Shown: positions 4,677 to 60,170 of the stretch, in pieces
Numbering within the stretch: the first letter of the stretch is position 1
How the letters are laid out: each line of letters begins with the position of its first letter
Origin: Lama guanicoe
Lineage: Eukaryota
DNA length: 64,000 nt
Assembly (NCBI GenBank): GCA_013239625.1
Contig: MU053661.1
Span: 62,001 to 126,000 of the forward strand
Direction: 5' to 3'
Position numbers and translations under genes: made by a program
Notes under the pieces: generated by a model
Databases searched by the model: none
Told to the model about the DNA's origin: nothing
The model's input: the letters and a program-made list of their open reading frames with translations, nothing else

Positions 4677-4791
4677 CTGATGAGATCTAAGGGCTACTTC
4701 TTGTCTATGCTTTGAGGAGGCGCCCATTCCCTGTACAGATGGCCCTGTTCGCTGGGGCAGCTGAGGTCCTCTGACGGAGGCTGAAGTTGCA
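4677..4791 (-). pseudogene. ANO6: ANO6-derived pseudo-exon (~exon 7)
   Basis: ttctcag|CNFS/PSEDLSCPSEQGHLYREWAPPQSIDKK*PLDLI|gtgagc (ANO6: CKFRRQSEDPSCPNERYLLYREWAHPRSIYKKQPLDLIR). 1-nt deletion and a TAG. Confidence 0.9.
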
Positions 4792-6349
4792 CTGAGAAGC
4801 AGAAGCAAACAGGTGAGCATCACTGTCACCACATGTTCACATGTTCTGTTGATAAAATGTGGTGCTAACACTTCGTGGTCATTTGTAAATAAGGGGTCCT
4901 CACTTGCCAGAAGGGATGGAGGGACCATATAATTTTTGATAATTCTCACCCAGGATTAATATTAACCCCTTGAGGGTCATTTGCAAACGTGGGTGGAAAG
5001 GAATGCTTGGATGTCGCAGTCCTGGGGCCACCGTGGGTACCTGGGGAGAGCCTTGCAGATGCTTAATGTCCTACAACCGAGCCAGTCTTCCACAGCAAAA
5101 AAACTAGGCCACCCAAGTGCCCAAACTGCTTCAGTGGAGGGACACCTGACAGTCCCGCCCCCACCTTGGACACCCAGAGGAACCTGGACTCTGGCAGGTT
5201 AGGGGCAGAGTCAATTCTAAAACCCAGGCATTTTTGTCCCCACAATTCAGTAGTTATTTGGTGACAGCACACGGAATATAAACAACAAAGAAACTTGACA
5301 TGATTTTATATATTTAGCTTACTCAAGAAACAAAATTTAAATCCAGTCATTCTCCTTCCCACCTGACCTACTTCCCTTCCTCCTGTACTAGAACCAGATT
5401 ATTACCCACCCAGCCTTAACATGGGTCCTGACTCCACTTACCTCCCACCCAAACACCACATGAGATGATTCCTAAGCCTGGATGTGGGGCCAGCAATTAC
5501 AACAGGCTTTAGTGAAAAAGTACTGGTTGTGCGCAGATGCCAAATAAACACTCTAGAATTCTGTTGTCTGACATTAGTAATCATGACAGCTGTTTGCAAG
5601 TGTCCCCAAAGTTCATTTCAGACTCTCACTGCTAATTTTCCTGGGACATAAATATAAAACATGTGGACTGCTGGGCTGGACTGCTATGCTGGGTCTCTGA
5701 TCCAGGAGGCTCAGTGTCTGCTCCCTGCACCCAGCTCCCTTTTCTGTTCATGCATGTGCATCAAGCAGCTGTTTAGTGTCCATTTTAATATCTTAAACAG
5801 TGCATTTCAGTATTGTCGTCATCCACAATTACGTGTACCACAGAGTAGTAATGATCAATCTCAGTCTCTGCTTTCTTTGGTCTTAGAGAGTCAGATAAAT
5901 GGATAGCAAAGATAACAAAGTCATAGAGCACTGTAATATAGTATTTCCTTTATTTCAATGACAGGATTCATTTAAAGAGCTTAGATAGAACATCCTTGCA
6001 TTTATGGCATCATTAAGCGTCTGAGGCTGTTACATTATAAAAACTTCATTTCATGCGAGATGTTATCAGATAGAGAATTGGTCCTGAATTTGAGGGGTTG
6101 CTGTCATCTCAGATGGAGTCTCTAAAAAATGTCAACTCTGCAGTATTGTCATCATTGCAAGAACCCAGACAGATGAAATTTGGAAAGCCCTGTGGCTTCC
6201 TAGTGCACAGAAAGAAAATGGTATTTCAGAGGGAAAAAGCCTGAATTACAGAAAATGATACATGAAATGGTCTAACATGCATTTCCCTTACAAAGAGCTA
6301 CTACTTTTTTGGTTGATAATAACATCTGTCAGTAATTATGAAAAGAGCT

Positions 6350-6560
6350 GACAGATGCATAGTACTTAATATTATGCAGGGCTGTTCTAACATTGACACA
6401 GATTCATTAATCCCCATATCAACTCTACGAGGTGGGTACTATTATTATCCCCATTTTATTGATGAGGAACTTGATAAACACAGAGGCTAAATGACTTTTC
6501 CAAGGTCAACAGTGAGAAACCAGCAGAGGTGTTCCAGCCTGACCCTACGCTCTTCGCCAT
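6350..6560. mobile_element. MIR SINE
   Basis: Core attattatccccattttattgatgaggaac...ccaaggtca. Confidence 0.7.
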
Positions 6561-6567
6561 TTCTCTC

Positions 6568-6733
6568 TCTTTTTTTTTTTTTTTGGTGGCTGGGAGATAA
6601 TAAGGTAATTCTGGTGGGGGGGTGGGGAGGTAATTAGGGTTATTTGTCTATTTTAGAGGAGGTGTTGGGGGCTGAACCTAGGACCTTATGCGTGCTAAGC
6701 ATGCGCCCCATCACTTGAGTTGTACCCTCCCCT
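6568..6733 (-). mobile_element. tRNA-derived SINE (vic-1-like) adjacent to a MIR
   Basis: Reverse complement ggggagggtacaactcaagtgatgg...gcttagcacgcataaggtcctaggttcagcccc with poly-T on +. Confidence 0.8.
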
Positions 6734-7015: not shown

Positions 7016-7131
7016 ACCATGGGGAGGGAAAGCTGCCTTGCAGATCCTGGAGCTCACAAGCCTGTTAAGCCCGAATTTTTTTTAACACTGTTCCTTACTT
7101 GATACGTCATCTGAGAAAGGATGAAGTAAAC
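7016..7131 (-). pseudogene. ANO6: ANO6-derived pseudo-exon (~exon 6)
   Basis: tttttag|VYFILSQMTYQVRNSVKK/FGLNRLVSSRICKAAFPPHG|gt (ANO6: VYFILSRVKYQVINNVSKFGINRLVNSGIYKAAFPLHD). An A8 run causes a +2 frameshift. Confidence 0.9.
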
Positions 7132-7355: not shown

Positions 7356-7640
7356 CTTGTGGCTTCTGGTGGTTGGATTGAAGAATGTATCTTTATCCTG
7401 AATAGAAGTCATTCACGCAGCTCCTCTCAAATACGGCAATGAAAAACTCTTGCTCCGGTAGATGACACTTTCATCCACTTGGTGGACTTTCATAAAATAG
7501 CTGAAATTATCAAAGGTTGAGGACCGGGTTTTCAGATCATTGGGCTTCAGAAGTAATTTTATGTGCAGTATCTCAGCGTATGTACAGAGCACATCCCACA
7601 GGGTGTGCACTTCGGCAAATACAAGGTTGTCATCCAAAAC
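7356..7640 (-). pseudogene. ANO6: ANO6-derived pseudo-exon (~exon 5)
   Basis: AG/GTAAG-bounded 285-nt exon: VLDDNLVFAEVHTLWDVLCTYAEILHIKLLLKPNDLKTRSS...PEQEFF...NDFY..QDKDTFFNPTTRSH. Two small deletions (-1, -2) with a TGA in the shifted frame. Confidence 0.93.
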
Positions 7641-8516: not shown

Positions 8517-8582
8517 TGATCTGGTTGCTCCCAGCTGCAGACCATCACAGATGAGGTTAGATTCACAGGCTCATGTTTGCTT
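8517..8582 (-). pseudogene. ANO6: ANO6-derived pseudo-exon (~exon 4)
   Basis: Translates ..*ACESNLICDGLQLGATRS (ANO6: RKRQAYESNLICHGLQLEATRS). In-frame TGA; acceptor AG appears mutated (ttttgacaa); GT at 8516-8515. Confidence 0.85.
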
Positions 8583-9309
8583 TGTCAAAAGAAATCAGAA
8601 AATGTTAGGCTTTTACTTTCACCAGGGAACAAGAAGTTGTTTTTTTATGCAAAAAAATAACAACAAACCAATTTGAACCTGATGAAAAGACATTTACTCA
8701 AAACAGCACAGTAGCAATGAAGGTGCTCTGGCTGGCAGGGACTTGTTGGATTCCTGTGAGTGCTGGACTCCTCACATGGAATTCCCTTAGCACTCCAGAA
8801 AGCCTGTGGTTTTCCTCATGGGTTTGTGGCCATAAGTGGCGCACAAAAGTCTCTGGATTTGCCACAATTTCAAAGCGTTTTTGGCTTATGAAAGGTTTTG
8901 CCCTCAAATGGAGTTTCCTTGAGTCCAGTCACTGATGTCATTTACTAGAGTTACAGTCCAGATCTAACATTCTAGACTCTTAAAATCTTGCAGACATTCA
9001 AATGGTTCAGATTTGGATGTGTATTCACCTCTGCAGGCCTGGACCAAGTCCGATAAAGACACCCGGACAAGTTCAGCAAAATAAAAAGAAATTTTCCTCT
9101 CTGCAAGACTGAAATGTCTGTGAAGCTATAAAAGCTTCTGCATCTACAAAAATAGGGAACCAACTCATCAATAACATATCTATCCATAATGCATGGACAT
9201 TTAAAATAAATACTGTATTTACTCCTATTAAATTCTAGCTGGCTTTTGCCAAACTGTGTCCTAAAATCTGTAAGGAAAGTATGTAAATGTAGAGAATTTT
9301 TTACCTTTT

Positions 9310-10105
9310 AAGAGAAAAAGGAACCCTCCTACTCGGTTGGTGGGAATGTAAATTGATGCAGCCACTATGGAGGACAGAAGAGAGGTTCCATAAAAAAATG
9401 AAAATACACTTCCGTGTGATCCAGCAATCCCATGCATGGGTATATGTTTGGAGAAAAATATAATTCAAAAAGACACATGCACCCCGATGTTCAGCAGCAG
9501 CACTATTTAAAATAGCCAAGGCACTGAAACAACCCAAATGTTCACTGACAGATGACTGGATAAAGAAGGTGTGGTATATTGCATATATATATGTATATAT
9601 ACATGTATACATATATATATACACACACATATATACACATGAACACACACACAAATGGAATACTGCTCAGCCATTAAAAAATAAAATAATGCCATTTGCA
9701 ATAACATGGATGGACCTACAGGTTATTATGCTAAGTGAAATAAGTCAGAGAAAGAAAAACAAATATTCCAAAATATTCCATAACTTATATGTATATCTAA
9801 AAAATAAAACAAATTAATGACTATAATAAAACAGAAATAGACACACAGGTACACAGAACAGACTGGTGGTTACCAATGGGGAGAAGGAGAAGAGGGGAGG
9901 CAGGAAGGGGTTAGGAGATTGAGAGGTAAAAATTACTACGTATAAAATGAATAGGTTGCATGGCTGTATCATACAGCACAGGGAAATATAGCCATTATTT
10001 TATGGTGACTTTAAATGGAATATAATCTATAAAAATGTTGAGCCTCTGTGTTGTACACCTGAAACTAATATGATGTAAATCAACTACTCAATTACAAAAT
10101 TTTTA
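9310..10105 (+). mobile_element. LINE-1 3' end (ORF2 end and 3'UTR)
   Basis: ggtgggaatgtaaattg..cagccactatgg; gcaataacatggatggaccta; L1-type 3'UTR. Confidence 0.9.
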
Positions 10106-10233: not shown

Positions 10234-10418
10234 NNNNNNNNNNNNNNNNNNNNNNNNNNNNNNNNNNNNNNNNNNNNNNNNNNNNNNNNNNNNNNNNNNN
10301 NNNNNNNNNNNNNNNNNNNNNNNNNNNNNNNNNNNNNNNNNNNNNNNNNNNNNNNNNNNNNNNNNNNNNNNNNNNNNNNNNNNNNNNNNNNNNNNNNNNN
10401 NNNNNNNNNNNNNNNNNN
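10234..10418. other. Assembly gap
   Basis: Run of N between the ANO6 and KLHL2 fragments. Confidence 1.
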
Positions 10419-10515: not shown

Positions 10516-10641
10516 CTTCTTAATTCATTCAGGACTTTACAATCTTTTTTCATATGCCAAGGATTCACTATCACTGTGCAATGTTTTTCACTACTATCAT
10601 CTTTGGGATTGAGACGCTTCTGATGACCCTGCTTTGTGCAT
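10516..10641 (-). pseudogene. KLHL2: Orphan KLHL2 (kelch-like 2/Mayven) exon 2 copy
   Basis: 126-nt AG/GT-bounded exon reading CTKQGHQKRLNPKDDSSEKHCTVIVNPWHMKKDCKVLNELR (KLHL2: CTKQGHQKPLDSKDDNTEKHCPVTVNPWHMKKAFKVMNELR). Frame is open but carries many substitutions; no other KLHL2 exon found. Confidence 0.88.
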
Positions 10642-10700
10642 CTGTACATAAAAGAAAATAACAAAACAGAGAAAAAAACCTTATTAAAGATAATTTAGCA

Positions 10701-10860
10701 GGGAGGGTATAGCTCAAGTTAAAGATCATGTTCTTAGCATGCACAAGGGCCTGGGTTCAATCCCCAGTACTTTTTCTAAAAATAAAATAAATAAATAAAA
10801 ACCTAATTACCAACCCCCCAGCAAAAAATTAATTTATTACTTTAATTAAAAGTTAAAAAA
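10701..10860 (+). mobile_element. tRNA-derived SINE (vic-1-like) with target-site duplication
   Basis: gggagggtatagctcaag...ggttcaatccccagtac, A-rich tail, flanking direct repeat gataatttag. Confidence 0.85.
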
Positions 10861-18483: not shown

Positions 18484-18589
18484 GCCGATACAGCCACCAA
18501 CTGAGGAAGCAAGAGAAGAAAGGAGAGTTAGTTATGCTGGGCTAGAGCCCACTTCTAAAATCCTTGTCAGCCACTGAGACTGCCCCGAG

Positions 18590-19420
18590 GACACTGAGCC
18601 TTCCTCCCAGGGACAGGCTGACATGACATGCGTCCTGCAAACCTGGGGCAGCAAAGGCCGTCCCCAGGTCTGGCCCTAGGGGAGATGGGAGCAAGTCCAT
18701 CTGCTCCCCCTGGGGCAGCACCCTTCCCCGCAGACCCCACCTCCTGACTGCACCGCGCCTGCATCTCAGGAACCCACTGACTTGAAAACAAGTGATCCAC
18801 GAACCTGGGTCAGCGGCAGGGAGATGCGCAGCGACCTGGCAAGCTGGTCGATTTGCCCCCATCTCCCTCACAGCCTGTCCAGAGCTCGGCATCTGTTCCT
18901 CCAGGCATGGTACCCAGGTCAGCCTGCTCCTGAGTGGAGGGCGCGGTGTGGTCGAAGGCAGTGGCTGGTTATGTGGTCTGCCCATGGGTGCCTGTGGATT
19001 TCCTTCAAACTCCCCAGAGCATGGCCTGAGATTGGCCTCTGCTGCCCCAGGTTCGTGGAACTCAGGTTACAGGTCAGCCTGCTCCTGGAAGGCGGGTGAT
19101 GTGCTGTCAGGGAACCGCGGCGGCTGCGATGGCGGGATTGGGGCTGCCTTGTGAGAGCGCAGGGGTTGCAACAATTTCCCGCTGCTGTTGCAGCCATCCT
19201 AGCACACTGATCGCACCGCGCCCACCTACCAGGAGCAGCCTGACCTGTAACCTGAGTCAGGAACACCTGGGGATTTAGAGGCTGCCCCCAAGGTCAGGCC
19301 ACAGGGAAGATGGGATCAAATCCAGGGGCTCTCATGGGGCAGCCCCCATTCCATCCGAGGCCCCGCGACCGCACCGCACCCGCCTCCCAGGAGCAGGCCA
19401 TGGTCTGAGGGCCAGTCAGA
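18590..19420. repeat. Second cluster of the same ~160-bp GC-rich repeat, in mixed orientation
   Basis: CAGGTCAGCCTGCTCCTG on + at 18915 and 19070; reverse-complement copies near 18603-18620, 19229-19248 and 19383-19400. Confidence 0.8.
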
Positions 19421-19459
19421 GATGCTCCGGAGCCGTCCGGCACCCTCCCAACTCCCGGG

Positions 19460-20030
19460 GCTGTACCTGCTTTCCTAAACCCGGGTATAAGTGTCGGCAA
19501 AAATGGGGGGCTCAGGAACTACTAATAGCGGGATTACCACGAACTACAGCGGCGGCTGGGACCCGTCTCAGGGCCCTAACGGGACGCGCGGCCGGGATCT
19601 CACCTCCGCACCCTTCACTGGGCGCCTCCCCAGCCGCACAGCTCAGGCGTCGCCCGCCGGCTCCCCGAGCAGTGCGCCCCCACCAGCGCCCCCTGAACTG
19701 CCCGGCAGCGGCAGCCGAGCCGCGGGCAAGCGGCGGCCCAGACCCCAGGCCGTGTTCCTCTTCCAGGAGCTGGTCCAGGAACAACAGTCACCTCCAAGCT
19801 TCCACGCGTTCCTGGCGGATTCCAGCGTCCGCGCGTCTGTCCGTTTGCGTGTGCGCGCCCCTCCTCCTCCCGCCCGCAGCGCAAACTGCTCGGGTGGGTC
19901 TTCTGCTTTACCGGCCCTGGCCACTGGTGCCGGGAGGAGCCAGGTGGGGCCCCTCCTGCTCGTCCCGCCAGGTCTCCATCCCCAGAGCCTTCACCCCACC
20001 ACCGACTGGGTCCTGGCACTGAACTAGAAC
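19460..20030. promoter_or_regulatory. CpG island of unidentified origin, possible non-coding first exon on minus strand
   Basis: Very high CpG density; minus-strand donor GAG|GTGAGA (GT at 19603-19602); no recognisable coding sequence. Confidence 0.6.
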
Positions 20031-21193: not shown

Positions 21194-21610
21194 TGTAATA
21201 GAGAAGAACAAATCTGACTCCATATTGGATCTGTTCCTTTTTCTTTAACCCTCTGCCGTGTTTTCCAGTCTTAGTCTTGATAGCTCTGCTCCTTTTGTAA
21301 AACAATGTTGCCTTTAGTCTGAAATAAACAGGAGAGCCTATTCTCTTTAAGGATATTAACACTTTTGCACTCCTATAAAGATAACAAGTTACAGAATAGA
21401 AAAAGTTTGTTTTGTTGCAGGTTTTACAGGAACACCATGATCTGACCCACGTGAACAGCTGCAAAGGATTCCAAGAACAAAGAAATCCTACACCAAGAAG
21501 TTTGCAACAACCAACCACAGCCCCTCCCCTGTTTACTAGAAAAGGAGCATGAAGTCTGACTTGGGGAAGATGGTTCTCCAAGATATTAGTCCACCATTAT
21601 CTTGGTCTGC
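21194..21610 (+). mobile_element. ERV LTR fragment
   Basis: Begins TGTAATAGAGAAGAACAAATCTGACTCCAT, an LTR-type TG start; a homologous inverted copy follows. Orientation inferred from the TG start. Confidence 0.6.
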
Positions 21611-21640
21611 CTCTGTCTAGGTAGACCAGGTCATAGTGCC

Positions 21641-21893
21641 TCTGTAAAACCTCTAACAAAACAAAACTTATTTTCTATTCTGCAACTTGTTGTCTCTACA
21701 TAAGTGCAAAAGTGTTACTACTCTTAAAGACCAGAGCCTTTAAAATAGGATCTCCTGTATATTTCAGGATAAAGGCAACATTGTTTTACAAACGGTGCAG
21801 AGCTAGTAAAACTAAGCCTAGAAATGAGGGCAAAGGGTTAAAGCCAAAAAGACAGATCTTCTATGGAGTCAGGTTTTTTTCTTTTCTATTATA
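21641..21893 (-). mobile_element. ERV LTR fragment, inverted copy of 21194-21440
   Basis: Reverse complement matches, e.g. tgtaaaacaatgttgccttta vs taaaggcaacattgttttaca. Confidence 0.65.
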
Positions 21894-21919: not shown

Positions 21920-22900
21920 ATAAGAATAAAGTTTAGCCTTTTCCCATTTTAAATTGTGCAATTTTAAGGAGCATTAAGTGCATTCACAATGCTGTGAGAC
22001 CAACACCACTGGTTTAGACAATTGCCTTCCTCAAACTAAAAGCTTGTATACAAAGCGCACCACACATCCTACCTCCCAAGCCCATGAGAAGCCCTAATCC
22101 CCTTTCTCTCTCTATGTCTTTACCTATCCTTGAGGTTCCCTAGCAATGAAATCATATGAAAGTTGGCTTTTTTTTTCTCTCTGCCCACGTATCTTAAGCA
22201 GGGACGGGTGAATTTTTTGTTTGTTTGTTTTCACGTGAATTAGCATTTTTGTATTTTGAGAGGAAAATCCAGATGGATTAAAGATGAGACGTACCAAGTG
22301 AAGCCCTTTTAGTAACTCTGTGCATAATCTCCTGGTAGGCACTGCTGTTCTAAGTGTGAAACCAGAGCCAGAAGGGAGATGCTTAGCTCTTCTTGTGGCA
22401 AAATAAAACCAAGCTAAAGCAGAAAACAAAGGCCAAGAAAGACAGCTGGAAAGACAAACCACAGCCTGGAGAAAGCTTTCCTCATGACCCAAGGTCAGAG
22501 AAAAGCTTCACATCACTGTGGTCCAAAAACCACTTGAAGCCCTGTGTTCTGAAAAGAAACAAAACACACACAGGCAGTTCCAATGAGAGGCAGTGCAGGT
22601 GGCCAGTGTGTGCTAGAGATGCTCGACCTGTAAGGTGAGGACATAGGCAGACGGACAGACTGCAGAGACAGCATTGGCCACCATCACACTGGCAGGTCTT
22701 TAGCCCGGTGAAAACCAGCCCTGGTGACAACGTGAGCAGGCAGATGCCCCAGGAGGTCCCCTGGAGGGAAGAGCAAATGGACACTCCTCCCAGCAGAACA
22801 AGGTGCAGGATACATCAAAATGCCACAGGTGCATCCCTTCCCTAGCAGTGCTGATCCTTAGAGAAGATCCCACCAAAGTGCTTGCACAATTCTCAAAGAT
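21920..22900 (+). repeat. ~1-kb diverged direct repeat, copy A
   Basis: Collinear with 25562-26555, sharing e.g. gaagcccttttagtaactctgtgcataatctc and ggcagttccaatgagaggca; starts at AATAAA followed by an old antisense L1 3' fragment. Confidence 0.88.
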
Positions 22901-24038
22901 AATTTTTCTTCAGTAACATGAATTCAAAATAATCAATGTGTCATCAAGGGATTTTCAGAAGTGACCTGCCATGGGCACGAACAATACACACACATAAATA
23001 CACACATATACACATAATTATATACACACATACATACAGGAAAAGAGACAGACTGAAACACAGAGAAGCAGGGGAGACAGAGATACAGAGAGAGAGACAA
23101 AACAGAGAGAGAGGCACTGAGAGACAGAGACAGAGAGAAGGAACACTGGAGCTGGCAATGAGTGGAACTCACGCACATTTTCACAAGTCAGTCTACATGT
23201 CAGAACCCGGTCTCAAAGTCCATCCACCATCCAGGGGAGGGTGTGGGGATCACACAAGGGCGTGGGAACAGAAGGCAAAAAATAGGAAGCCATTGTGCGG
23301 CAGCCCACCACAGAGGCCGAGATGGAACATAGGGCCTGTATGTCAAGATGACAGAATGACCTAGGAGGTTGTATGCCAGAGCGGACGATGTCAGAATTGT
23401 ATTTAATTTCAGTCTCACGACTGGGAGCTGGGAAGCAAGCAGCAAGGAACGTGACTTTCTTCAGACCCCAGGGCAGACCCCGGCCTGTGTGGCATTTGCT
23501 TTGCGCTCCGCCAGCCCACTGTGGGGTCCTTCCACTTTGCTGAGCTGTGCACGAGCTCCCTGTGATGCCAGCCCGTGGGGGTGACAGATGCAATAGGTGT
23601 TTCTAGGTCTAGAGACAGGATGGCTTCTCTAGGAAGCAGGGTCCAGAATGATCCCCACTGTGCCATTGGGGGATTGGGGAGACCCTGAAAGGCACATGGC
23701 TTGTCCAGGGTGATAGCACTGCTGAGTAGGGGGAGCCATGTCTGAAGCCAGCTGTGACTTCAGAGCTGCGACACTGGCTACATCCTGGCCTCCCCAGGGC
23801 TATGGTGTGACTGAGTTTGTCATTATGTGTGGACATGGCATGGGGTGAGAAATGAGAAATCGGCAGCCCAGAAAGGCCCTTGAGGAGCTTTGTGTCAGGA
23901 GGAAGCTTGGAGAAGTGGACCCCAGGAAGTGACTTCACTTCCCTGGCAATGGAGCCCAACAGAACTTGGAACCGAAGTCACCAGGCACCCACTCTGTAGA
24001 GAAGTCCCTACTCAGCTCACCTGGTTGGAGACAGAGGC

Positions 24039-25503: not shown

Positions 25504-25561
25504 GATTCCTGTGCTTGTTTCACATCACTTATGACATCCTTTATTTTTCTTTTCAGAGTTT

Positions 25562-26555: not shown

Positions 26556-27169
26556 TTTCAAGGGTGTTCATCACAGCACTGGTTGAAATAGTCGGAATTA
26601 AAGCAACACTAATGTTGATTGAGAGGGGATGGGGTCCATTCGTCCTGGTTCATGTGGATGAATGAATGCTGTGCAGTTGGAAAAGTGGGTGTCTGTTCTC
26701 AACCCAATGTCAAGGGAGGCCTCAGGGTGGAAGTATGCAGATCCAGTCTCTGCATCCAGGGTCCCATCTGGACGACCACATATGTGTGAAATCAATATAG
26801 ATGGAAATTGTTCTGATTATGAGTGTGTGAGAGACAGAGATGGAGAGAGACATACTGAGAGACACAGAGACTGAGACATAAGCACCAAATCATTCATGAC
26901 AGTCACCGCTGTGGGTGGGAATTACAAATCTCTTCTCTTTTAGGCAATATTTCAATTTTTTGTAATGTGTCTGTATTACTATCCTAATTCTAAAAGAATT
27001 AAAATCCTATGTTAAAGTGACCCATTCATTACTCATCTATGGAGTAATTAAAGTACATTAATCCTATTTTTAAAAGACTTTAAAGCCTTCTCAGGACTCA
27101 GTTCCATGTCAGCTCCGAGGCAGCAGAGGTTCTCCAGGAGGTCGTGTCTCTTCTGAATCAGCATCCAAT

Positions 27170-41795: not shown

Positions 41796-42639
41796 NNNNN
41801 NNNNNNNNNNNNNNNNNNNNNNNNNNNNNNNNNNNNNNNNNNNNNNNNNNNNNNNNNNNNNNNNNNNNNNNNNNNNNNNNNNNNNNNNNNNNNNNNNNNN
41901 NNNNNNNNNNNNNNNNNNNNNNNNNNNNNNNNNNNNNNNNNNNNNNNNNNNNNNNNNNNNNNNNNNNNNNNNNNNNNNNNNNNNNNNNNNNNNNNNNNNN
42001 NNNNNNNNNNNNNNNNNNNNNNNNNNNNNNNNNNNNNNNNNNNNNNNNNNNNNNNNNNNNNNNNNNNNNNNNNNNNNNNNNNNNNNNNNNNNNNNNNNNN
42101 NNNNNNNNNNNNNNNNNNNNNNNNNNNNNNNNNNNNNNNNNNNNNNNNNNNNNNNNNNNNNNNNNNNNNNNNNNNNNNNNNNNNNNNNNNNNNNNNNNNN
42201 NNNNNNNNNNNNNNNNNNNNNNNNNNNNNNNNNNNNNNNNNNNNNNNNNNNNNNNNNNNNNNNNNNNNNNNNNNNNNNNNNNNNNNNNNNNNNNNNNNNN
42301 NNNNNNNNNNNNNNNNNNNNNNNNNNNNNNNNNNNNNNNNNNNNNNNNNNNNNNNNNNNNNNNNNNNNNNNNNNNNNNNNNNNNNNNNNNNNNNNNNNNN
42401 NNNNNNNNNNNNNNNNNNNNNNNNNNNNNNNNNNNNNNNNNNNNNNNNNNNNNNNNNNNNNNNNNNNNNNNNNNNNNNNNNNNNNNNNNNNNNNNNNNNN
42501 NNNNNNNNNNNNNNNNNNNNNNNNNNNNNNNNNNNNNNNNNNNNNNNNNNNNNNNNNNNNNNNNNNNNNNNNNNNNNNNNNNNNNNNNNNNNNNNNNNNN
42601 NNNNNNNNNNNNNNNNNNNNNNNNNNNNNNNNNNNNNNN
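41796..42639. other. Assembly gap
   Basis: Run of N. Confidence 1.
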
Positions 42640-43744: not shown

Positions 43745-43995
43745 CTGCAATGAACTGCTCGTACTCAATGTCAGGGATGTTTCTGTTGAGACTTGGGAGG
43801 TCAAAGGAGTCGGACCAGGGAATCCAGACCTGGTTGATGTCGGGGCTCTGCCAGTGGTAGAGGTGGCCCCAAGGGGATAGCACCAGTACCGGCTTCTCCA
43901 TCCTCAGCAGGGTCTTCAGGATGAAGGCAATGTGGATGCAGATGTTCCTACGGAGGCTGAAGCCCTCTGGAAGGTTGAAGTCACACAGAAGGTAC
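43745..43995 (-). pseudogene. POFUT2: POFUT2 exon 2 copy
   Basis: 251-nt exon, ccag|...|gtgagg: [83 protein letters not shown], matching POFUT2 [83 protein letters not shown] with many substitutions. Confidence 0.93.
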
Positions 43996-44730: not shown

Positions 44731-45381
44731 CCCTAACCTAGGTGAGACTCTTCTACACTAGAGCCAGGCAAGGGTCCTGGATTCTGTAATGAGTTACCAC
44801 CACCACACCCCTCCCTTCTCTGTTTCTCACAACCTCCATTACTGCAGATGAGGATGTAATCCTTAGCCAGGGCCTCTAACCCTATAAGACTGCTAACTTC
44901 AAGAGAGAGGGTCCCATCTACCATCCCTACACCCAGCATTGTTTATTTTGATTTAAGCCCTAGGTAACTGCTTATCGGCCCTGACCCATGTGTCTTATTC
45001 CTGAGGTTGACTGAACGAACCAATATCTGGAATGAACAGAAATTTCCCTGCAGATAAACAAGGCTGATAAACCACCCCATTCCAACATCTGATTCTGGGG
45101 CTCTTCAAAACCCGGGTAAGGCCCCGCTTCATCTAAGATGGGTTCTCCGCCTGCCCTTCCCGGGGGGTTCTGGGAGGCTGCGGCCACCAAGGGAGACCCA
45201 GACTCGCGGCCCCAGCCCCAGGGCCTGAGGGGGAGGAAAGCTTGAGTCTGTGCCCAAGCCCTGCCCCACCCCGCCCCAAAACGCTCCCCGGCACCATAGC
45301 CCTCCCCGGCCACCACCCCAACCCAGATCCCACCACGGTTCATGTCCACCGGCCCCGCCGACGGAGCGGAAGTACGTTTAC

Positions 45382-45487
45382 CGTCTGTGGGACGCCGCCC
45401 CAGACAGGATATCTGCCGCCTACTGACCAGGCCAGAACTAGTCGCCCGGCCAAGCAAGCCGCCAACCCCAGCAGCAAGCACCGCCAT
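45382..45487 (-). pseudogene. POFUT2: POFUT2 exon 1 copy (disrupted)
   Basis: ATG at 45487; 3' part reads *FWPGQ*AADILSGAASHR|gtaaac (POFUT2: EFWPGQSAADILSGAASRR). Two TAG stops (45440-45438, 45422-45420) and indels in the signal-peptide region. Confidence 0.9.
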
Positions 45488-45548
45488 GGTCCCAGGCAGC
45501 TACACACATCCGGATTCCGTTCCCCGCCCCAGAAGCGCACTCCGGCCC

Positions 45549-46442
45549 GCGTGGAGCGCGGCGCCTGTAACCATGGCAACGCCGCAGGGCCCTCCCCTAG
45601 CGCTTGCGTCGTGCGTCCTCCTGAGTCTAGATGTGCGAGGGCAGAACTTGCGGAGCCAATGGGAGCCAGGGCGCGGCCAGCACAGGGGTGGGGGGAGGCT
45701 TATGGGACAGCTGGGCGGGGCCGTGGAGGGTAGGGCTGCGCGGAGGTCCTCACCTGCAGGTGGCGCCGGCCGGAGGCTGGGGCGGTGCTGCCACCAGTGA
45801 GCGGGGCAGCGGGGCAGCGAGGCAGAGGGGCAGCGAGGCAGCGTGGCAGAGGGGCGGGGGCACCCTCACCTGTCCGTGTGTGGGGATCAGCCTGGGCTCC
45901 GCGGCCTCCCCTTGCACCGGACATGGACCCAGGCTGCCGGTGGGCAAGATAGAGGACTGAGCCCAGGCACGCACGGTTGGCCAGGTAGTGCACCATGCGT
46001 GGAGCGCGGCGCCTGCAACCATGGCAACTCCGCAGGGCCCTCCCCTAGCGCTTGCGTCGTGCGTCCTCCTGAGTCTAGATGTGCGAGGGCAGAACTTGCG
46101 GAGCCAATGGGAGCCAGGGCGCGGCCAGCACAGGGGTGGGGGGAGGCTTATGGGACAGCTGGGCGGGGCCGTGGAGGGTAGGGCTGCGCGGAGGTCCTCA
46201 CCTGCAGGTGGCGCCGGCCGGAGGCTGGGGCGGTGCTGCCACCAGTGAGCGGGGCAGCGGGGCAGCGAGGCAGAGGGGCAGCGAGGCAGCGTGGCAGAGG
46301 GGCGGGGGCACCCTCACCTGTCCGTGTGTGGGGATCAGCCTGGGCTCCGCGGCCTCCCCTTGCACCGGACATGGACCCAGGCTGCCGGTGGGCAAGATAG
46401 AGGACTGAGCCCAGGCACGCACGGTTGGCCAGGTAGTGCACC
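45549..46442. repeat. Near-perfect tandem duplication, period 448 bp (45549-45994 and 45997-46442)
   Basis: Direct comparison shows only two visible mismatches; the ORF track also repeats identical peptides 448 bp apart. Confidence 0.95.
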
Positions 46443-50609: not shown

Positions 50610-50730
50610 AGGGGGTGGGTGTAGCTCAGTGATAGAGCGCATGCTTAGCATGCATGAGATCCTGGGTTCAAACCACAGCACCTACACAAAAATAAATAAA
50701 TTACCCTCCCCCCGAAAAAAAACAAAACAA
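50610..50730 (+). mobile_element. tRNA-derived SINE (vic-1-like) with target-site duplication
   Basis: gtagctcagtgatagagcgcatgcttagcatgcatgagatcctgggttcaaacc; TSD aaagcata(c/a)attg. Confidence 0.88.
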
Positions 50731-53700
50731 AAGCATAAATTGGACATCACCCATCCCATCAAAACTCACTAAAAGAGTCACCAATTCATTAGGAGCCAAA
50801 GTCGTCCCAAAGTCTTCCAGGACCCGGCGTGCTCTGCCTCTCCGCCCACACTCTCCACCTCACTCTGGGGGCCTCTGGCTCCGGCTCTTCCTTCTTCCTC
50901 CGGATCTATGCTGCTTCAAGTTCATTACTCCGTGAGATCTGCCAGGATTGCCTTGTTCCCTCCTGTCTGCCTCGCACCCCACCGCCATCACCTGAGTTTG
51001 CTCATATCACTCTTATCTTTCCCCAAGCTCTTGCTACCCCCAACATGCTGCCTGTTTCATCTGCTAAAACTCTGAGCCCCCAGTGGTGGGGAGTCGTGTC
51101 TAATTTGTTGACTAATAAAGCCCAAGAGCCTTGGGAACAGGTCTAGTTACTAGATTCCCATATGTAGTAGGAGCTTATGCAGATTTGCTGAATGAATGCA
51201 GAGGTCCTGGTCCAATCCGATGGAGCACTTGTGTGTCCTGCTCAAAGAATAACTCTCCTTTCCCCCTGAGAGGGGGTGACCACTTCCTTGGTGATCAAAG
51301 GCAAGGTCTATTTTCTTTATGCTGTTAAACTTAGGCGGGGAGACTGGGGGATCTTCACTTATATTTTAAAATTTGATTCACTCTGCAGTGTGTCTTATGT
51401 CTATGTATTCTTTTAAGAAACCGTTTATGAGTGATCATTCTTCCATCAGATTGAACTGGAACCAGGGGGAATTACGAAGCCTGTCCCATCGGACATCCTG
51501 TGTGTCATGTCCTGTGACCCAGTGGATGCTCAGCACGTAAGTGAACCGGCAAGAGTGAGTGAAGAGATGGGAGCATCTCATTTTTGTGGTGGCTGCACTC
51601 TGTCCGATGCCTTGAGATTTGGGGGTTTACAAGTGCGGAGGGGAGAGGTCAGGTTCTCCGTGATCTTCCTGAGTGCCCTGGCCTTACCCATTCCCACAGC
51701 CCCCTCTGGGCAGCCAAGGCCAGGAGCTGGGCCACCGGCGATTGTGCTGATCAATAATCCACCTCACACAAAGTCCGGGGGTAGGAGCAGCCAGCACAAC
51801 TGGTTGTAGACTCTGGAGTCAGGTCCTTGGAGGAATTCCTCACTGGACGATGTTTTGGACCTTTTATTTTTCTCTATAGCCTCCAGCTGAAGAAACAGAT
51901 TGCCTTAGATACATGAAAGGTGAGGACACCTACTATCCCCATGGAACCCTGGTGGGGCTGGGAGTGTGCTGTTTGTACAGCCGGTGGGCTCGTGTTGCTT
52001 TGGGCATTCCTGTGCCTGAATTCCTGCAGTACACTCGGTGGTAAGGACGGGGGTGCCTGGCAGGGAGGGAAGCGGGTCGGAAGACTGCACAGCTGGGGAG
52101 ATGTTAACCTGGGGTGAGCGGGGACCTGCTGATGCATGGCATCTCGGTGTAGGGAACTCTCCACACTCAGAGGGGTTCCCACTCCCGCCGGGGCCCTTTG
52201 ATCAGGGTGCTGGGCTGTCTGCACAGCAGGGTCCCTGTGAGGATCATGGTGCCTTCAGGCAGTGGGAAGTGAGGGGTCAGTGGCACATAATGTGTTTCCT
52301 AATCTGCAAAACTGGAATGATGTTAACCATCCCGCAGGTTCGTTGATGGGCTGGGACACACTAGACAACCAGGAGCTGGAATTCCTCTGTCCCGATTGTT
52401 TTCCTTCCTTCCCACTATTTGCTCTCACAAGCTCAGTCTCTCTGTCTCTCTCTCTCTTTCACTTGTGGATTTCTCTCCTGCTCTGGTTTCATTTGATTCC
52501 CACCCTCCTCCCAATCCCCAGATGAGTGAAATTAATTTCTGTGTGTCAGTTCCAAATTCCCTGGAAAGATACACTCTCCCCTCTGGATTTGTTGTCCAAC
52601 CCATCAGTTGCAGCCAGAGGAGAGAGTCCCTCTGTGACCAGTGGAGGGGCTCTGCCCAGGCCCCAGCCACCACTGTGGGAGCACATAGCTCTCCGAGGAG
52701 GAGGTACTGGCTGTGACTTGGTGTCACTAAGTGTGAATTTATGTCTCCTCTTGCCCCACCTTCATCCTCCTAAACAAAGTTGAAAATTAAACATTCCCGA
52801 GATTTGTGTCATGGATCACTCAGGGTGGGGGCTAAGAGGGCTGGATTCCCTGCTGAGTGTAAGGGGCTACAGTGACTCCCCAACGAGAGCCTGTGAAGGG
52901 AACAGCACCGGCCCCACCGGACACTTAGGGCGCTGAGTCTGCGTGACATTGAGCCAGGCTTCTGACCACAGCTCAGGGGTCTGGTCCGACCGGTTAGTCT
53001 TTGAAACCAACCAGCTTTGGATTCTTCAATCCCGCCCTGAGGTTTTACCTGAACCACCAACTTCTGTATCTCTGAAGAGAGATGATGAGGACCCGTCACA
53101 TAAGGCATTTGCACGTAAGGCATTTGCACAGCCCTGTGCGGGAATTTGTGCTGCATGGTCTGCCCGGCGATCTGAACGAGGTTGGTATTTTACTGATCTT
53201 AGAAATAGTCTGGTTTCCTGATGCACTGTTTCACTTAACAAGCAACAGAAGCCACCTCTGGCTGATAAAAGTAAAAAAGGGACTTAAAGAAAAGATACTG
53301 GGAGGGTGCATGGAGTTGCCCGGACCAGAGCCGACCCGGGGGCCGTAGGAGATGTTGGGGAGCCCTAGGCACCAGGCTGGGCAGGGTGTCACCAGGCCCC
53401 CTGCTGCCGCAGCAGGGACCCCCCTCCTCCTGACCCTCCACCTCAGTGCAGGTTCGTGTCCTGGCAGGGCCATGTCACACTGAAGCCACCAGCCCACACC
53501 TCAGTGGGAGAGTGGGCCCGTCTCAGCTGAGGGAGTGCCTGGTGTGGGGAGAGGCCCAGTTAGAGGAAGGCGGGTCCCCTACTGTTCTGAGTTAAGGTGT
53601 AATTCAGTGCCGGTCACTCAGGAGAGCCAGGGTGGTCTGACCTCATTGTGGTGACTATGCCGTCTGAGTTCACTTATTACTTTCTAGGTTGGAAGAACCA

Positions 53701-55569
53701 AGAGGGAGAAAAAGTGGAGGTTCTCGTACTTATTTTATATTTCCCACGTACCAGGTATAATAAGCAAGCCACTTCAGACAAGGCCCAGAACAAACACATA
53801 AATAGTCCACGGAGCAAGTCGTGCGGTCAGGCCTCTGCAGCCCCGAAACCCGTGTCCTAATCAGCTCCATAGTTACCAGTGGAAGTTGTAGGGATTTATG
53901 GGACTGTGTGCTCCTGTGGGGGCTGGGATGTGTGTGTTTAAATCCAGATCTTCAGAAACTCGGCTAGAACCACAGCCCCTGATTGTCTGCATGGAGGCAG
54001 AGGAGGGGAGGCTTGCAACCTCTAGTCCAGCTTGTGAAGAGCTCAGAAGTTGCTCCTTCTGTCCTTAAAACAATACCAGAGCTGAGGGAGCTGAAAACCC
54101 ACTACTCTTCTAAGATCCATAAGGAAACTGAGGGGGAAAGCTGCCCCCAACCCAGAGAGGCAGCCGGGCAGGCTTGGAGAGTCACAGCTCCCAGGGCAGA
54201 AATATCTTTTGTAAGAACCCCGGGGGCAGGCAGATTTAACAGGTCCCTGAGGCCAGCTGGAGGCTCAGCGTGGGGAAGTCTGAGTGTGACAACACCAGGA
54301 GGCCAGTCAGAGGGGCCCCCTGCTCTTTTTCATGCATTTTACCTCCAGGACCATGTCATGTTCTCAGAATGAAGGTCAGAGGAAAACTCCTCATGTTTCC
54401 TGCCTGGAAAGGAGAAAATAACTCTATTGAAATACATCCAGAACATTCTGTTTCATTGGCGGAAGTTGTTTTGTGTTTGTTTTTTTTAATGAAAAATTAT
54501 TTTACCAGAGCCTAACCAACCTGGGAGAAGGGAAATCCCTTCTGTCTCACCCAAATTGCGGTGGGGGGAAAGAGACACACTTTTGGAGGTCACAGATCAG
54601 GGCATAGTCTCAATGAGAACTAATCACAGGACTGCAGATGCCCTGCTCTGTCCCGCTCCCCCAACATCTTACCTCCATGTCAGTAGGGCCCCTGTGTAAT
54701 AACAGGAATAAAACTAAAGAAGTAAATGTCTCAGGAGTGTCTAGGGAAAACCCAAAGACAGCAGGGAGATGAAAACAAGGACACACAGGCTGTTTTAGCC
54801 TCTCACACCAATAGCTGTAGCAAACAACACACAGCCCAGCCCCAGTAGATAAACAGACAACCTCACAGAAGAAATTATTTATTTTGGTTCTCTTACCCAG
54901 TGCATTCCATGGTGCATTCTCGCCTAGAATTGAGTGGCAGCAAGTCCATCTCAGAAGGGACATAACTGAAGAGGGATGGCTTCCCAGAATCTGGCGGGCA
55001 GAGAGAGCACCAGCCTGAGTGAGAGCATGATGAGGGGTGGGGTAGGGGGTGGGCTGCCTTCTTCCCCAAATAAGGAACCTTCCTGAGACCAGCACAGTGG
55101 AAGGGAGGGCCATGGGGTGGAAGCAGACAGACTTCTTCCTGAGAACTGATGGGATGCCTCAAAGAGACTTTTCAGCTGCCCAAACTGGGCCCTGAGGATG
55201 GGAGCCAGTCGGTCTGACTCAGAGCCCAGGACTGAGGTGGGCTCACAGCAGGCCGGTCTTACTTGGCCGGATCCATTTCACTTCTCCGAAGCCCTGTGTA
55301 AAACATGAAATGTGGACGGCCTGGTGAGCACAGCTCTGCCCTCAAGACCTGTTTCAACTCCTCTCTTCCCGGAAAACAGCATCATGAACCCATCTGGGTG
55401 ACCTCACAGAGATCACCCTAGTGGCCCAGGCTAGTGACCGGGAACATGTACCTTCCTGCAGGCAACCCCTGACGTCCACTGATGCATCATATACTGGCAA
55501 AGAGTGAGTCCCTGTGCATTGGTCTTACAGCAGAGACTCTGCCAAAGGCCCAAGAGGTGGTGTGTGGGA

Positions 55570-55745
55570 CATGCAGGGGTGCAGGATTGTAGGCAGTGCA
55601 AAAATGTAACTGGTGACAGGGGTGCAGGGGCTGTGGAGGGTGCAGGCAGTTCAGGGGATGCGGGGGTGGAGGGAAGCAGAATTGCAGAGAGTAGCAGGGG
55701 TGCAGAGGTGCAGGGAGTGTAGGGATGCAGGGAGGTGCTCAGGGA
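55570..55745 (+). repeat. Degenerate short G-rich (GTGCAGGGG-like) tandem repeat
   Basis: Repeated gtgcaggg(g)/cagggg units directly upstream of the 160-bp array. Confidence 0.75.
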
Positions 55746-55780
55746 CGTGGCCACCATTAGAAGGCAAGTACACATCCTCG

Positions 55781-57890
55781 CAGTCAGCCTGACCCCGGGA
55801 GGCTATTGCAATGGTTTGGGGTGGCGGCGGCGGCGGCGGTGGCGTTTGGGAGGCTGCCCAGGCAAGCCGGTCGATTTCTTCTCTTCCCTGCAGCCTGGCC
55901 TGTGTTGGGGCTTGGCGGCCGGAGATTCGCCAGATGTTGGACTCCAGGTAAGCTTGCTCCTGGGAGGTGGGGCGGTTAGGTCAGGGGGCGGTGGCAGCGG
56001 CAGGGGGGCGGAGCGGGGCTGCCCCTGGCCAACTGGTGGAATAGCTGCCTTTTCCCGGCTGCCGGGCCTGGGAGCGGCCTCTGCTTCCTCAGGTCGCCGG
56101 ACACGCCTGTCCCACTCAGCTTGCTGAGTGGGGAGTGGGTGCGGTGCCGTTAAGGTGCAGGGCCCACGGGGGGAGGGGAGCTGCCGTGGGGAAGCCGGTC
56201 AATCCGCTCCGCTCTCCCCGGCGGTGGAGCCAGGAGCGGCTTCTGCTGCCCTAGAGGCGGGACGCGGGTCTCCAGATGAGCTTGCTCCTGGGAGGCGGCG
56301 GCGGAGGCGGCAGGGGCAGGGGATGTGTTCCAGGGAGTTGCTCCATTTCTTCTCTCCCCCACGGCCTGGCTTGGGGGCGACGTCTGCCGCCGGATCCGAC
56401 TCCAGGTAAGCTTGCTCCTGGGAGATGGGTGCGGTGCGGTCAGGGGGCTGGTAAGGTGGTGGCTGCAGGCATAGGGAGGCTGCCCCGGAGGAGCTTGTGG
56501 ATTAGCTCCATGTCTTCACCGCGTGGCCTGAAGGCGGCCTCTGCTGCGCCAGGTCCCGGGACACCCCTGCCCCACTTTGCCTGCTGGGGGCGGGAGGCAG
56601 GGTAGTTAGGGTGCAGGGGTGGCGGTGGTCGGCGGCCTGCAGAGGGGGAGCGGGCCCACTTGCTCCCATCTTCCCAGCGGCTTGTCCTGGGGGCGGTCGC
56701 TGTTGCCCTGGGTTACGAGACATGTGTATCCTAGTTGGCCTGACCCCGGGAGGAGGACTTGGTACGTTGGGGGTGGTGGCAGCAGCAGCAGGTTTTCCCG
56801 TGGATCTTGACCATTTGTTCCCACTTTCCCCCATGGTTTGCCCTGGGGGCGGTCCCTGTTGTCCCAAGTTCGCCGGACGTCCATATCCAAGTCAGCCTGC
56901 TCCCTAAAGGAGGCCACCGTGAGGTCAGGGGGCAAGAGTGGTGGCTGCTGCGGGGGTAGGGGGCTGCCTTGTGGGGCTGGTGGATTGGCTCCCGTCTCCC
57001 CAGTGGCCTGGTGTGGGAGTGGCCTCTCCTGCCCCAGATCACCAGACACACCTGTCCCATTCAGCCTGCTGGGAGAGGGGCGCCCTGGGCGGTGCCTTTA
57101 AGGTGCGGGGGTGGCGATGGCGGGGGTAGAGGATCTGCAGCGCGGAGCCTGTCAATTTGCTCCCCTCTTCTCCGCGGCCAATCCTGGGGGCGTCCTCTGC
57201 TGCCCAAGAAGCCGGATGCCCGTCTCCAGGTCAGCTTGCTCCTGGGAGGCGGGCGCGATGCGGTCGAGGGGCAGAGGCAGCTGCGACGGCCGGCTGCCCC
57301 GCCAAATGGGGCCACTTCTTCTCCTCTCCCCTGACCTGGCCTGGGGACGGCCTCTCCCGCCCAAGATTCGCCTGACACCCCACACCCGGTCAGGTTGCTC
57401 CTGGGAGGTGTGCGCGGTGAGATCAAGGGTTGGAGAGGAGAGGGGGCTGCCCCTGGCGAGCTGGAGGATAAGCTGCCATCTCCCTGGAGGCCTGACGTGG
57501 GGGCGGCCTCTACTGCCCCTCGTTCCCAGGTAAACCTTCTGAGGGTCATATTGCCCCGAGGGTGAGGTAGGGTGCGGGGATGGCGGGGTTTCGCGGGGGT
57601 ATGGAGCCTGCCGCTTGGGATCTGGTGGTTTAGCTCCCATCTCTTCCGCAGCTTGGCCTGGGGGCAGCCTCTGTTGCCCCAGGTCGCAAAGCACAGTTTC
57701 CCTGACAGCTTAGCCACCGCAGGTGGGCAGGATGTGCTGAGGGGGCGGAGGCAGCCGCCAAGGCAGCGACGGAGGGGGCTGTCCCTGGCCAGCTGGTCAA
57801 TTTGTTGCCATCTCAACTTTTGCTGCCCCAGTTTCGCAGGACGCCCTACTCCAGTTTATCCTTCTCCTGGGTGGTGGCCGCAGTGCATGC
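55781..57890 (+). repeat. Diverged GC-rich tandem array, ~14 monomers of ~160 bp
   Basis: Anchor motif CAGGT(A/C)AGC(C/T)TGCTCCTGGGAGG or variants at 55781, 55945, 56113, 56273, 56403, 56573, 56732, 56888, 57058, 57227, 57387, 57543, 57702, 57852; GGCCTCTGCTGCCC-like motif precedes most anchors. Confidence 0.85.
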
Positions 57891-59684
57891 AGCCCAAGGT
57901 CTGGGCTCTCACCTGGGGAGGGGCAGAACTCTCTTGTTCTCCTTTGTCTTTATTCTTCAGCGAAGTGGTTACTGGACCCAATTCTTAATTCTGAGAAAAT
58001 GTAGCCTGTGTTACGGAAGAGCTGCTGGACAGTGAGGATCCTGGGTGGGTTTTCACATCTGCTGATGCCCCAGGCAGGCAGGAAAGGTATTACTCAGAGC
58101 TTCTTAGTCTGGTGTTGGGGGATGGCCGCGCCATCTTCACCATGCTTTTTAAAAATGTGTTACTCCCCTCTTTTTCCTAGGTGACATTTTAGGTTATTGG
58201 GTCACAGATTGCTGGCACATTCAACCCTGTTCTCAAACATCTTTTACACTTGGGTGAAGTGATAAGTAAGGAAGATGATTTACTGAAAGATAAGAATACT
58301 TAAATTTGCATTAAAGCTACATTCTGTCAATCTTTCTCAAATGATTTTTCTCTGATTCTAAATCCACGACCTAGTGAATGTTGTACTCTTATGTAAATCA
58401 TTGATCTTCACATCACATTTGTTGAGTGGTAAATGAGATTTGTTAAGTAGATTATTCCTGAAAGGAAAAGCTCAGGCTTTTGAGAATTCCTAGTCTGATG
58501 TCACCCAGGCAGTCACAGTTGAAGACAGAACTGATATAAAAATCCCTCAGCTGCCTGAACTGCAAAGCTTCTGGAATTATTGATCCCTGAAATGCAGGTG
58601 ACTCTTGATGATAATCTGGGGGATGGTTTATATGATCAGATTCTTCCAGTCCTGTAAATGGGTTCCGTGGCCCCAGCCCCGAGAGAACTGGTCATAAGGG
58701 CCATATCGTGTAGGGTGGGATGGAAAGGCAAGGTGTAAGAGCTGGAATCACTGAGATTCCACACTCGCTACACACAGACTCCAGAGCCTAATTGTTGTCA
58801 GATTCTGTTCTGTACTTGAGAGTGTGTTCAGACATGATTCTTGCCCTTCTGGAGTCACTGCCTGGGTGGAAGTAACCTTTACATAAATCTGGGAAGGATG
58901 GCAATTAAGTAGATGGGCTTTTATGGTTCTCAGTGTGCCCAGGCTCGCTCTTCCAGGCACTCGTGGGACTAAGGAGAGTCATGTTATTCACTCATTCACT
59001 GATTTATTACCCTTGAATTGATAATTTTTCCCACAGTAAGTGAAACAAGGGATCAGGAACCTGAGTTTTATCCCCTCTCCTATCACTGATTGTATCTGTC
59101 AGTCGGGAGCCCTGCGTATGCATTGTGAAATGGTGGTATTTCTTGCCCAATGGGGCTGCACTGTGAGTTCTGAGAATCAGGGGAGACACGTGGGTAGGAC
59201 AGCACCCTGACACACATGGCCCCCCACCCCGTGAGACTGCATTGTCGATGCTCATGTGACCCGATGCATACGGCGGTGCTACACCTGAGCATGTTTAGTG
59301 ATCTTGGTGGCTATGAAAATACAGACTACCGGTCCCTACCTCTTGAGACTCTGAGGGTGTGCACCCCAGAATTCTGCATTTTAAGAAGCACTTTAACTAA
59401 TTCTGATGAAGATGATCTGAGTGTCCCACTGAGAAACACTGGTGTGCGAGGAACCAATATTGAGGATTCTCAGGGAGCAATTTCATTTCAGGATTGTCCA
59501 AGGGCCCTCACTTGTGACTTTTGCATTGGGTTTAATTGTATGTGTTCAGAGTGATGTCTCTCACTTCCAGTGCTTGTCAGCATGCTCTGTGCAGGGATTT
59601 GTTCTCACTAGCTATCAAAAACTGTGATTCTTCAGGTCACCAAGCTAGAGTGTGAGCGATCTTTTATTTTGGTTTTCTTTATTG

Positions 59685-60170
59685 CAATGCAGAGTCTCCC
59701 GAGAAGAGATTCAGACTGAACAGCTTTGTGTCAGAATTTGGAAGACCGCTGGTGCCCAAGGTGTTGTGTGGCAGGGCAATGACGAATCTAGGTCCCTCTT
59801 TCACTGCTACATCAGTGAAGTGGACCACTTGGACAAGGCCAAAGCTGGTATCTCAACCATTGCCCTTGACAATGATATTCGGCTCCAGGAAGCCATCAGA
59901 TGCATCAGGTGGCCAGAGGAGGAGCCAAACAAGCTCATGAAATGTGACATCCCCAACTTCATCAACACGGACCAGAACTCTTCCTCTGGGGAAGATGATC
60001 TCCTGATTTTGGAACCACCGATTGTTCTAGAAAATAAGGCAGTTGCCCAGACCTCACACAAAGACTTGAATAGAGAAACGTGCTTTGTCAAGTGTCTTTC
60101 TGAAGATGTGAAGTCTGTCTTTGTATGGCAGGAATTCCTCTTTCACAAAGTTGTATGTGTTTTTGTCTGA
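59685..60170 (+). pseudogene. MRAP2: Orphan MRAP2 last coding exon copy (cytoplasmic tail only)
   Basis: NAESPEKRFRLNSFVSEFGRPL then, after a frameshift, QGNDESRSLFHCYISEVDHLDKAK...DIPNFINTDQNSSSGEDDLLILEPPIVLENKAVAQTSHKDLN, matching the MRAP2 C-terminus. Original acceptor now reads TG; no in-frame stop at the expected position; TM-encoding exon not found. Confidence 0.9.

Follow-up and report, generated by a model that had tools for sequence, protein, structure and literature searches.

A 64-kb stretch of Lama guanicoe DNA is probably one decayed copy of a mosaic pseudogene cassette amplified across camelids

We analyzed 64,000 nucleotides of Lama guanicoe DNA (assembly GCA_013239625.1, contig MU053661.1, positions 62,001 to 126,000), referred to here as the window, in which pieces of the genes ANO6, KLHL2, POFUT2 and MRAP2 lie together. 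With a probability of about 0.8, the window represents a single decayed copy from a mosaic cassette of pseudogene fragments that was amplified camelid-wide. The best reading was that the cassette was assembled a single time on the stem of the camelids, and that its amplification as a block came afterwards. A preliminary description of the same DNA had proposed a duplication hub where five gene pieces landed. This was not upheld because copies from other species and other contigs had the same lesions and joins, which made the window most likely a copy of a pre-built cassette. The window was CpG-poor and mammalian in composition, with four N gaps. The best named protein matches were all from Vicugna or Camelus, in agreement with the camelid-like genome proposed earlier. 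We take human ANO6, KLHL2, POFUT2 and MRAP2 to lie on chromosomes 12, 4, 21 and 6, respectively.

Full-length rodent ANO6 was aligned to the window using tblastn, and it aligned at only four minus-strand exons, corresponding to residues ~120-310 and spanning 3.9 kb. The exon copies were located at 4677-4791 (rodent residues ~273-310, in-frame TAG), 7018-7131 (residues ~234-270, frameshift), 7356-7640 (residues ~138-234, frameshift, Pfam Anoct_dimer) and 8517-8585 (residues ~117-137, a stop near the start, 5' edge approximate). Two frameshifts and an in-frame stop fell within the alignment. A 60-residue frame matched the PDB anoctamin-6 structures with an E value of 5e-19. No ANO6 exon earlier than the 8517-8585 copy was found within the window. 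The 3' end of the piece probably lies to the left of the first window position, because the models of other copies held later exons. The frameshift at 7440-7465, in the largest exon, resulted in a shifted peptide that is also found in Bactrian P0040 and dromedary P0081, and most other ANO6 copies were in frame at the matching site. This frameshift may identify an old subfamily, or the loss of one base may have recurred.

KLHL2 was represented by one minus-strand exon copy of 126 nt at 10516-10641, with intact AG/GT splice sites. It matched 18 proteins, some of which were named KLHL2 or kelch-like 2/3, and was ~70-76% identical to KLHL2-type proteins. Unlike the ANO6, POFUT2 and MRAP2 pieces, it carried no disabling lesion. 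Read-through homology to an intron of another mammal (P0057) extended as far as the edge of gap 1 (10234-10418, 185 N). A CpG island on the minus strand at 19351-20000 contained an upstream exon, which was spliced to the KLHL2 exon in alpaca, Camelus ferus and dromedary models.

Two minus-strand exons of POFUT2 spanned 1.7 kb; the exon numbers are our own assumption. The exon 1 copy (45382-45487) lay at a CpG island (45201-45850) and matched the POFUT2 structure 4ap5 with an E value of 1.6e-5. It contained two in-frame TAG stops, and its ATG was not in the reading frame of the matched segment. The exon 2 copy (43745-43995, 251 nt) had an open frame and intact splice sites, and matched 4ap5 (E 1.8e-34) and Pfam O-FucT. 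Exon 3 was not found in the three minus frames of the 1.3 kb left of gap 4 (41796-42639, 844 N). A near-palindromic motif was observed at 45567-45580, 80 bases before the start of POFUT2, and it fits what we take to be the RFX X-box consensus. The motif lies in a 448-bp tandem duplication on the plus strand (45549-46442, 2 differences in 446 nt), whose second copy differs by one base within it. This doublet, 99.6% identical, may be a recent duplication or a local assembly error.

The last exon of MRAP2 was copied on the plus strand at 59685-60071. The copy started exactly at the exon boundary, after a pyrimidine tract ending in TG in the acceptor position. It was 78% identical to the C. ferus MRAP2 protein, the ancestral stop was read through, and a frameshift near 59770 was common to other copies. 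No other MRAP2 exon was found in the window with a full-length camel MRAP2 model as the query, and no A run of at least 8 was present in the 1.9 kb after the exon. An origin as a retrocopy or processed pseudogene was rejected since introns were retained. The pieces arose by DNA-level copying, not retrotransposition, because splice sites and intron flanks were kept; this point of the preliminary description was confirmed. It had also called the pieces intron-containing, truncated and mostly disabled. ANO6 and POFUT2 were indeed multi-exon pieces, whereas KLHL2 and MRAP2 were single exons with intron flanks. Lesions were present in ANO6, POFUT2 and MRAP2. ANO6 was cut at its 5' end, but it probably continues beyond the window at its 3' end.

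Copies of the pieces were found elsewhere in camelids. The MRAP2 exon matched 36 proteins, including nine of copy type (six from dromedary, two from alpaca and one further). The six dromedary loci lay on five contigs (52.1, 85.4, 1.47 (twice), 0.91 and 0.27 Mb), and the intact dromedary MRAP2 gene lay on a separate 81.2-Mb contig. The intact gene and the nine other copy-type proteins ruled out the earlier caveat that the window might hold the only copies. The ANO6 exon matched 19 proteins. Thirteen were short copy-type models, 12 of them from four named camelid species; several isoforms are included, so this is not a locus count. ANO6-like models were located on three dromedary contigs and on alpaca contigs of four listed lengths. 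About nine ANO6-like loci were read from the accession groups of alpaca. One identical ANO6-like protein was listed there under three accessions, and for this reason points to recent copying in alpaca. The alpaca accessions were oddly close for several chromosomes, and the claim of dispersal leans on dromedary. The presence at several sites was observed in these relatives rather than in the Lama guanicoe genome. Genomic copies that retain introns, reach a length of 1 kb or more and occur at several sites were consistent with a mosaic segmental duplication.

The joins between the pieces were also found in other assemblies. A KLHL2-ANO6 splice across gap 1 was present in gene models of alpaca (P0046, P0076, P0077, P0083), C. 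ferus (P0045, P0049, P0078, P0087) and dromedary (P0081), and for several of these models the start lay within the CpG island, at ~19.8 kb. C. ferus P0056 was collinear with the window, from 25360 to 20691, 19877, KLHL2 and ANO6. Alpaca P0001 and P0007 started in or just before a GC-rich array of the window and were then spliced to the MRAP2 exon. Dromedary KAB1271209 (ANO6-like) and KAB1271210 (MRAP2-like) were one accession apart on one 85.4-Mb contig. The alpaca pair XP_072812638 and XP_072812642, ANO6-like and MRAP2-like, were four accessions apart on one 113.9-Mb contig. If accession order follows position, as is the practice, these pairs suggest that ANO6 and MRAP2 pieces are adjacent in dromedary and alpaca. 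The mosaic is not simply mis-scaffolding, because the joins recur in the gene models of other assemblies.

A tree of the MRAP2 exon was built from 33 rows and 99 columns, consisting of 32 of the 36 matches and the window; P0032 and P0034-36 were left out. The window and the nine MRAP2 copies formed one clade with 100/100 support and a stem of 0.14. Within the clade the copies formed an unresolved star with tips of 0.03-0.16, and the end branch of the window was 0.063; the branch of the C. ferus gene, by comparison, was 0.037. The alpaca and dromedary copies did not group by species. It was nested in a group with 96/93 support that also held the MRAP2 of camel and of porpoise and one further row. 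Nine substitutions were present in most MRAP2 copies and in none of the 14 orthologue rows. In the KLHL2 exon, five substitutions were common to the window and all five other camelid copy proteins, and were absent from all 10 orthologue rows. For ANO6, nine substitutions were common to the copies and absent from five non-camelid rows. The single clade, the shared substitutions and the shared joins were those expected of a single seed.

Protein identity was 75-91% between copies (mean 84%) and 72-81% between copy and parent. At the DNA level, the identity between copies is probably above 90%, and that between copy and parent may be below 90%. We also compared the minimum number of changes among copies per column between columns invariant and variable in orthologues, leaving out near-identical isoforms. 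The values were 0.64 vs 0.63 for MRAP2 (53 and 46 columns), 0.56 vs 0.57 for ANO6 (52 and 7 columns) and 0.31 vs 0.33 for KLHL2 (32 and 9 columns). The constraint of the parents was excluded because change was equal at invariant and variable columns. The three pieces appear, from these alignments, to evolve neutrally without the protein constraint of their parents, which is still compatible with a new function or a role as RNA. The earlier suggestion of exon shuffling was borne out by the chimeric gene models, but the pieces kept no trace of the parents' protein constraint.

The split of camel and lama is placed at ~16.3 million years in the available text of PMC12127551. We infer that amplification began before or around this split. 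The capture of MRAP2 would be perhaps two to three times older, a rough figure from protein branch lengths. The following course would account for these results. Genomic pieces of ANO6, KLHL2, POFUT2 and MRAP2 would have been copied as DNA with their intron flanks, a step that the window itself shows. Each piece would have been captured once and decayed before it multiplied, as indicated by the tree for MRAP2 and by shared substitutions for ANO6 and KLHL2. The pieces would then have been joined before the block reached several contigs in camelids of both the Old and the New World; such prior joining was seen for KLHL2-ANO6, for KLHL2 and the unit upstream of it, and for the GC-rich array and MRAP2, and is likely by extension for ANO6-MRAP2. 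The spread might have occurred through ectopic recombination or repair between repeat-rich regions, starting before the camel/lama split (~16 million years ago) and continuing in alpaca. Residual CpG islands and splice sites would let some copies give chimeric gene models.

The GC-rich array was located on the plus strand at 55835-57905 and consisted of 13 decayed ~160-bp units, all facing the MRAP2 exon. A profile was built from seven array units with 60% mean identity among these seeds. It gave six further matches at 18583-19398, upstream of the KLHL2 exon, in mixed orientation and partly self-inverted, and it gave no match in five shuffled windows. Three array units kept a CCAG|GT donor directed toward the MRAP2 exon, and alpaca P0001 and P0007 appear to use two of the three. 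In the window copy, a splice from the array to MRAP2 is unlikely because the MRAP2 acceptor was lost. The region 18922-19398 was self-inverted (67% over 500 aligned columns), with repeat units facing away from each other. Just before the array, at 55560-55760, a degenerate 8-base GGTGCAGG-type repeat was observed. Nowhere else in the window was CAGGG as frequent (14 per kb), and the repeat resembles primate CAGGG repeats by look only. Of eight published alpaca satellite primers, which cover 4 of the 13 satellites of PMC13751797, none matched the window at up to 4 mismatches.

These repeats might be given a larger role. The ~160-bp repeat could act in camelids as a "core", supplying captured exons downstream of it (KLHL2-ANO6 and the MRAP2 tail) with a portable promoter and first exon, giving rise to chimeric transcripts and driving the spread of the block. 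We strongly doubt this idea. If it were true, one product could be a soluble MRAP2 tail peptide that lacks the membrane anchor and affects camelid melanocortin signalling. A related proposal, the least probable of those weighed here, is that the family is selected: the repeat and the CpG island would supply portable first exons, and the block would be amplified for useful transcripts or peptides. The donors of the repeat point toward the captured exon and appear to be used in two alpaca models, the shared frameshift returns the spliced form to the MRAP2 tail frame, and one C. ferus locus has isoforms X1-X8, which usually mean RNA support. However, no constraint was detected at conserved columns in any of the three pieces, a test of ancestral constraint only. 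The models of different copies also differed in their starts and exons, and the window copy lost its MRAP2 acceptor. The support comes from gene models, and databases list only open copies, which biases openness.

The remaining alternatives concern the locus and its assembly. A local acceptor hub, in which the pieces landed one by one at the window locus and all other copies derive from it, is quite improbable. Some locus had to be the seed, and all pieces are together in the window with GC-rich repeats near two changes of origin. However, the window MRAP2 copy was an ordinary tip of the star by its end branch and had private lesions such as the lost acceptor, and the same joins were found on other contigs in three other species. 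A partial assembly chimera, in which the cassette family is real and the scaffold joins contigs from different copies at gap 3 (33419-33538, 120 N) or gap 4, is unlikely, although the four gaps in a many-copy region and the near-identical doublet would suit it. Of 24 public runs listed, the 14 DNA-type or unlabelled ones held only 0.23-0.36 of the sampled words from 55.3-60.3 kb, and paralogue collapse or species distance would both give such shares; six RNA runs held 0.08-0.12. Against a chimera, KLHL2 and a unit with an MFCC head at 24039-25503 lay in one gap-free contig, POFUT2 and MRAP2 lay in another, and the two ends of the mosaic adjoin by accession in two other assemblies. Gap 2 (32331-32435, 105 N) was inside one L1-like element, with flanks that were consecutive parts of other L1-like copies in one orientation. 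The mis-scaffolding raised in the preliminary description was countered at gap 1, where the join was reproduced in other assemblies, and at gap 2, and this check covers these two gaps only.

Several points weigh against a single pre-built cassette. The placement of the copy clade as sister to camel MRAP2 was weak (85/67). Some of the residues shared by the ANO6 copies may simply be typical of camelids, as the outgroups were few and mostly rodent. The parent sequences compared included no full-length camelid ANO6, KLHL2 or POFUT2. The evidence base was the window itself and the gene models of other camelid assemblies, and all evidence on copies was at the protein level from automatic models. 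The shared joins cover KLHL2-ANO6, unit-KLHL2 and array-MRAP2; the POFUT2 copies considered were those of the window, and the adjacency of ANO6 and MRAP2 depends on the practice of accession numbering. A single cassette built once and amplified as a block was nevertheless the reading that we preferred.

The fifth piece, labeled as RalGDS-like in the preliminary description, was not established with the other four. It is a damaged multi-exon unit on the plus strand at 24039-25503 with an MFCC head, a Pro/Ala-rich tail and a spliced look. It lies in a plus-strand ~3.64-kb unit at 21925-26559 with ~1-kb direct repeats (21925-22908 and 25567-26559, 77% identical), and this unit is the remnant of a tandem array. 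We presume a resemblance to mammalian "RalGDS-like" models, and the label was not confirmed. No Pfam family, including RasGEF_N and RasGEF, was found in the three plus frames of 24001-25502 with E up to 10, and a cut-down RasGEF remnant could score below this limit. The MFCC unit gave only chance matches to PDB and nothing usable against the atlas, and the literature search found nothing on a RalGDS-like expansion.

Pfam scans covered 406 stop-free frames, mostly taken from 495 frames of at least 50 amino acids outside masked repeats. Only O-FucT and Anoct_dimer were above the cut-off, and five sub-threshold matches were set aside as chance. No sixth gene was found in these frames, and short exons would escape such scans. 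Exon-like stretches with AG/GT edges at 37902-37967, 51440-51540 and 51881-51920 were matched to no gene, and it is possible that they are further captured pieces. The 3' end of an L1-like element (9386-10090, plus strand) matched three other copies in the window and sits in the interval of the KLHL2/ANO6 junction. A ~100-bp repeat was present in three copies (6636-6732, 10701-10796 and 50612-50707), and we take it to be a camelid tRNA-derived short interspersed nuclear element (SINE); the L1 and SINE labels are our assumptions. An inverted repeat was observed at 21196-21891 with ~250-base arms, 78% identical. Possible long terminal repeat (LTR) or endogenous retrovirus remnants at 27500-28600 and 36700-37700 were seen by eye, and Pfam was blank over both. 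A metagenome match at one locus was rejected as chance; the matching contig had 68.5% GC, was not CpG-depleted and did not align with the window by BLAST.

In primate core-duplicon families such as NPIP and TBC1D3, as in the camelid block, the duplicated cassette carries promoter-like sequence, and chimeric gene models are numerous. Unlike these families, the camelid pieces change neutrally, and an open frame under selection was not found. Primate pericentromeric mosaic duplications, for example the CHEK2 duplicon, are described in the available text of PMC2566985 as seeding followed by swapping. The camelid block was similar in having partial, intron-bearing copies of probably unlinked genes joined as a cassette. 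As for CHEK2, shared flanks indicated a single seed, the block spread as a whole, and GC-rich repeats were nearby. However, the camelid mosaic is older than the primate system as described there, with 78% protein identity to the parent, and its repeat, built of ~160-bp units that carry a splice donor, is not known to be of the CAGGG type. The camelid mosaic would fit the seed-then-swap pattern, a likeness that rests on structure and not on chromosome position.

Two other systems were compared on the available text of their sources. Pseudogene-rich repetitive blocks with NEK10, ATF5, FMN2, uS3m, ACTB and ABHD17A are reported on alpaca chromosomes 11, 17 and 36 (PMC13751797). These are also multicopy, fragmented camelid gene copies among GC-rich repeats, interpreted as duplication and subsequent decay. 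However, they involve other genes, and ANO6 and MRAP2 occur 0 times in the main text. They are also reported as absent from camel assemblies, whereas the ANO6-KLHL2-MRAP2 family is present in camels too. The SD13M core elements of mouse chromosome 13 (PMC3722088) are likewise a non-primate mosaic of LTR and long interspersed nuclear element fragments with partial genic regions, and this mosaic recurs many times. They occupy one chromosome region, whereas the camelid family is on several large contigs. A literature search, with most subscription journals and supplements outside its scope, found no description of an ANO6-KLHL2-POFUT2-MRAP2 block. The block was not described in the available text of PMC7830431, PMC12127551, 10.1101/2025.08.28.672513 and PMC6598621, nor, for the terms ANO6 and MRAP2, in that of PMC13751797.

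Mosaic duplication is well known from primates. These results suggested that a primate-style mosaic duplication by seeding and spreading also took place in a distantly related group of mammals whose karyotype is very stable, and long enough ago for camels and alpaca to have it in common. This would account, as decayed copies, for the six dromedary models that bear the name MRAP2 and for many that are called anoctamin-6 or anoctamin-5-like. Such copies can distort variant calling, scans for copy number and selection, and expression counts of MRAP2, which acts in energy balance, and of ANO6 in camelids. The block matters mainly as a source of false gene annotations.

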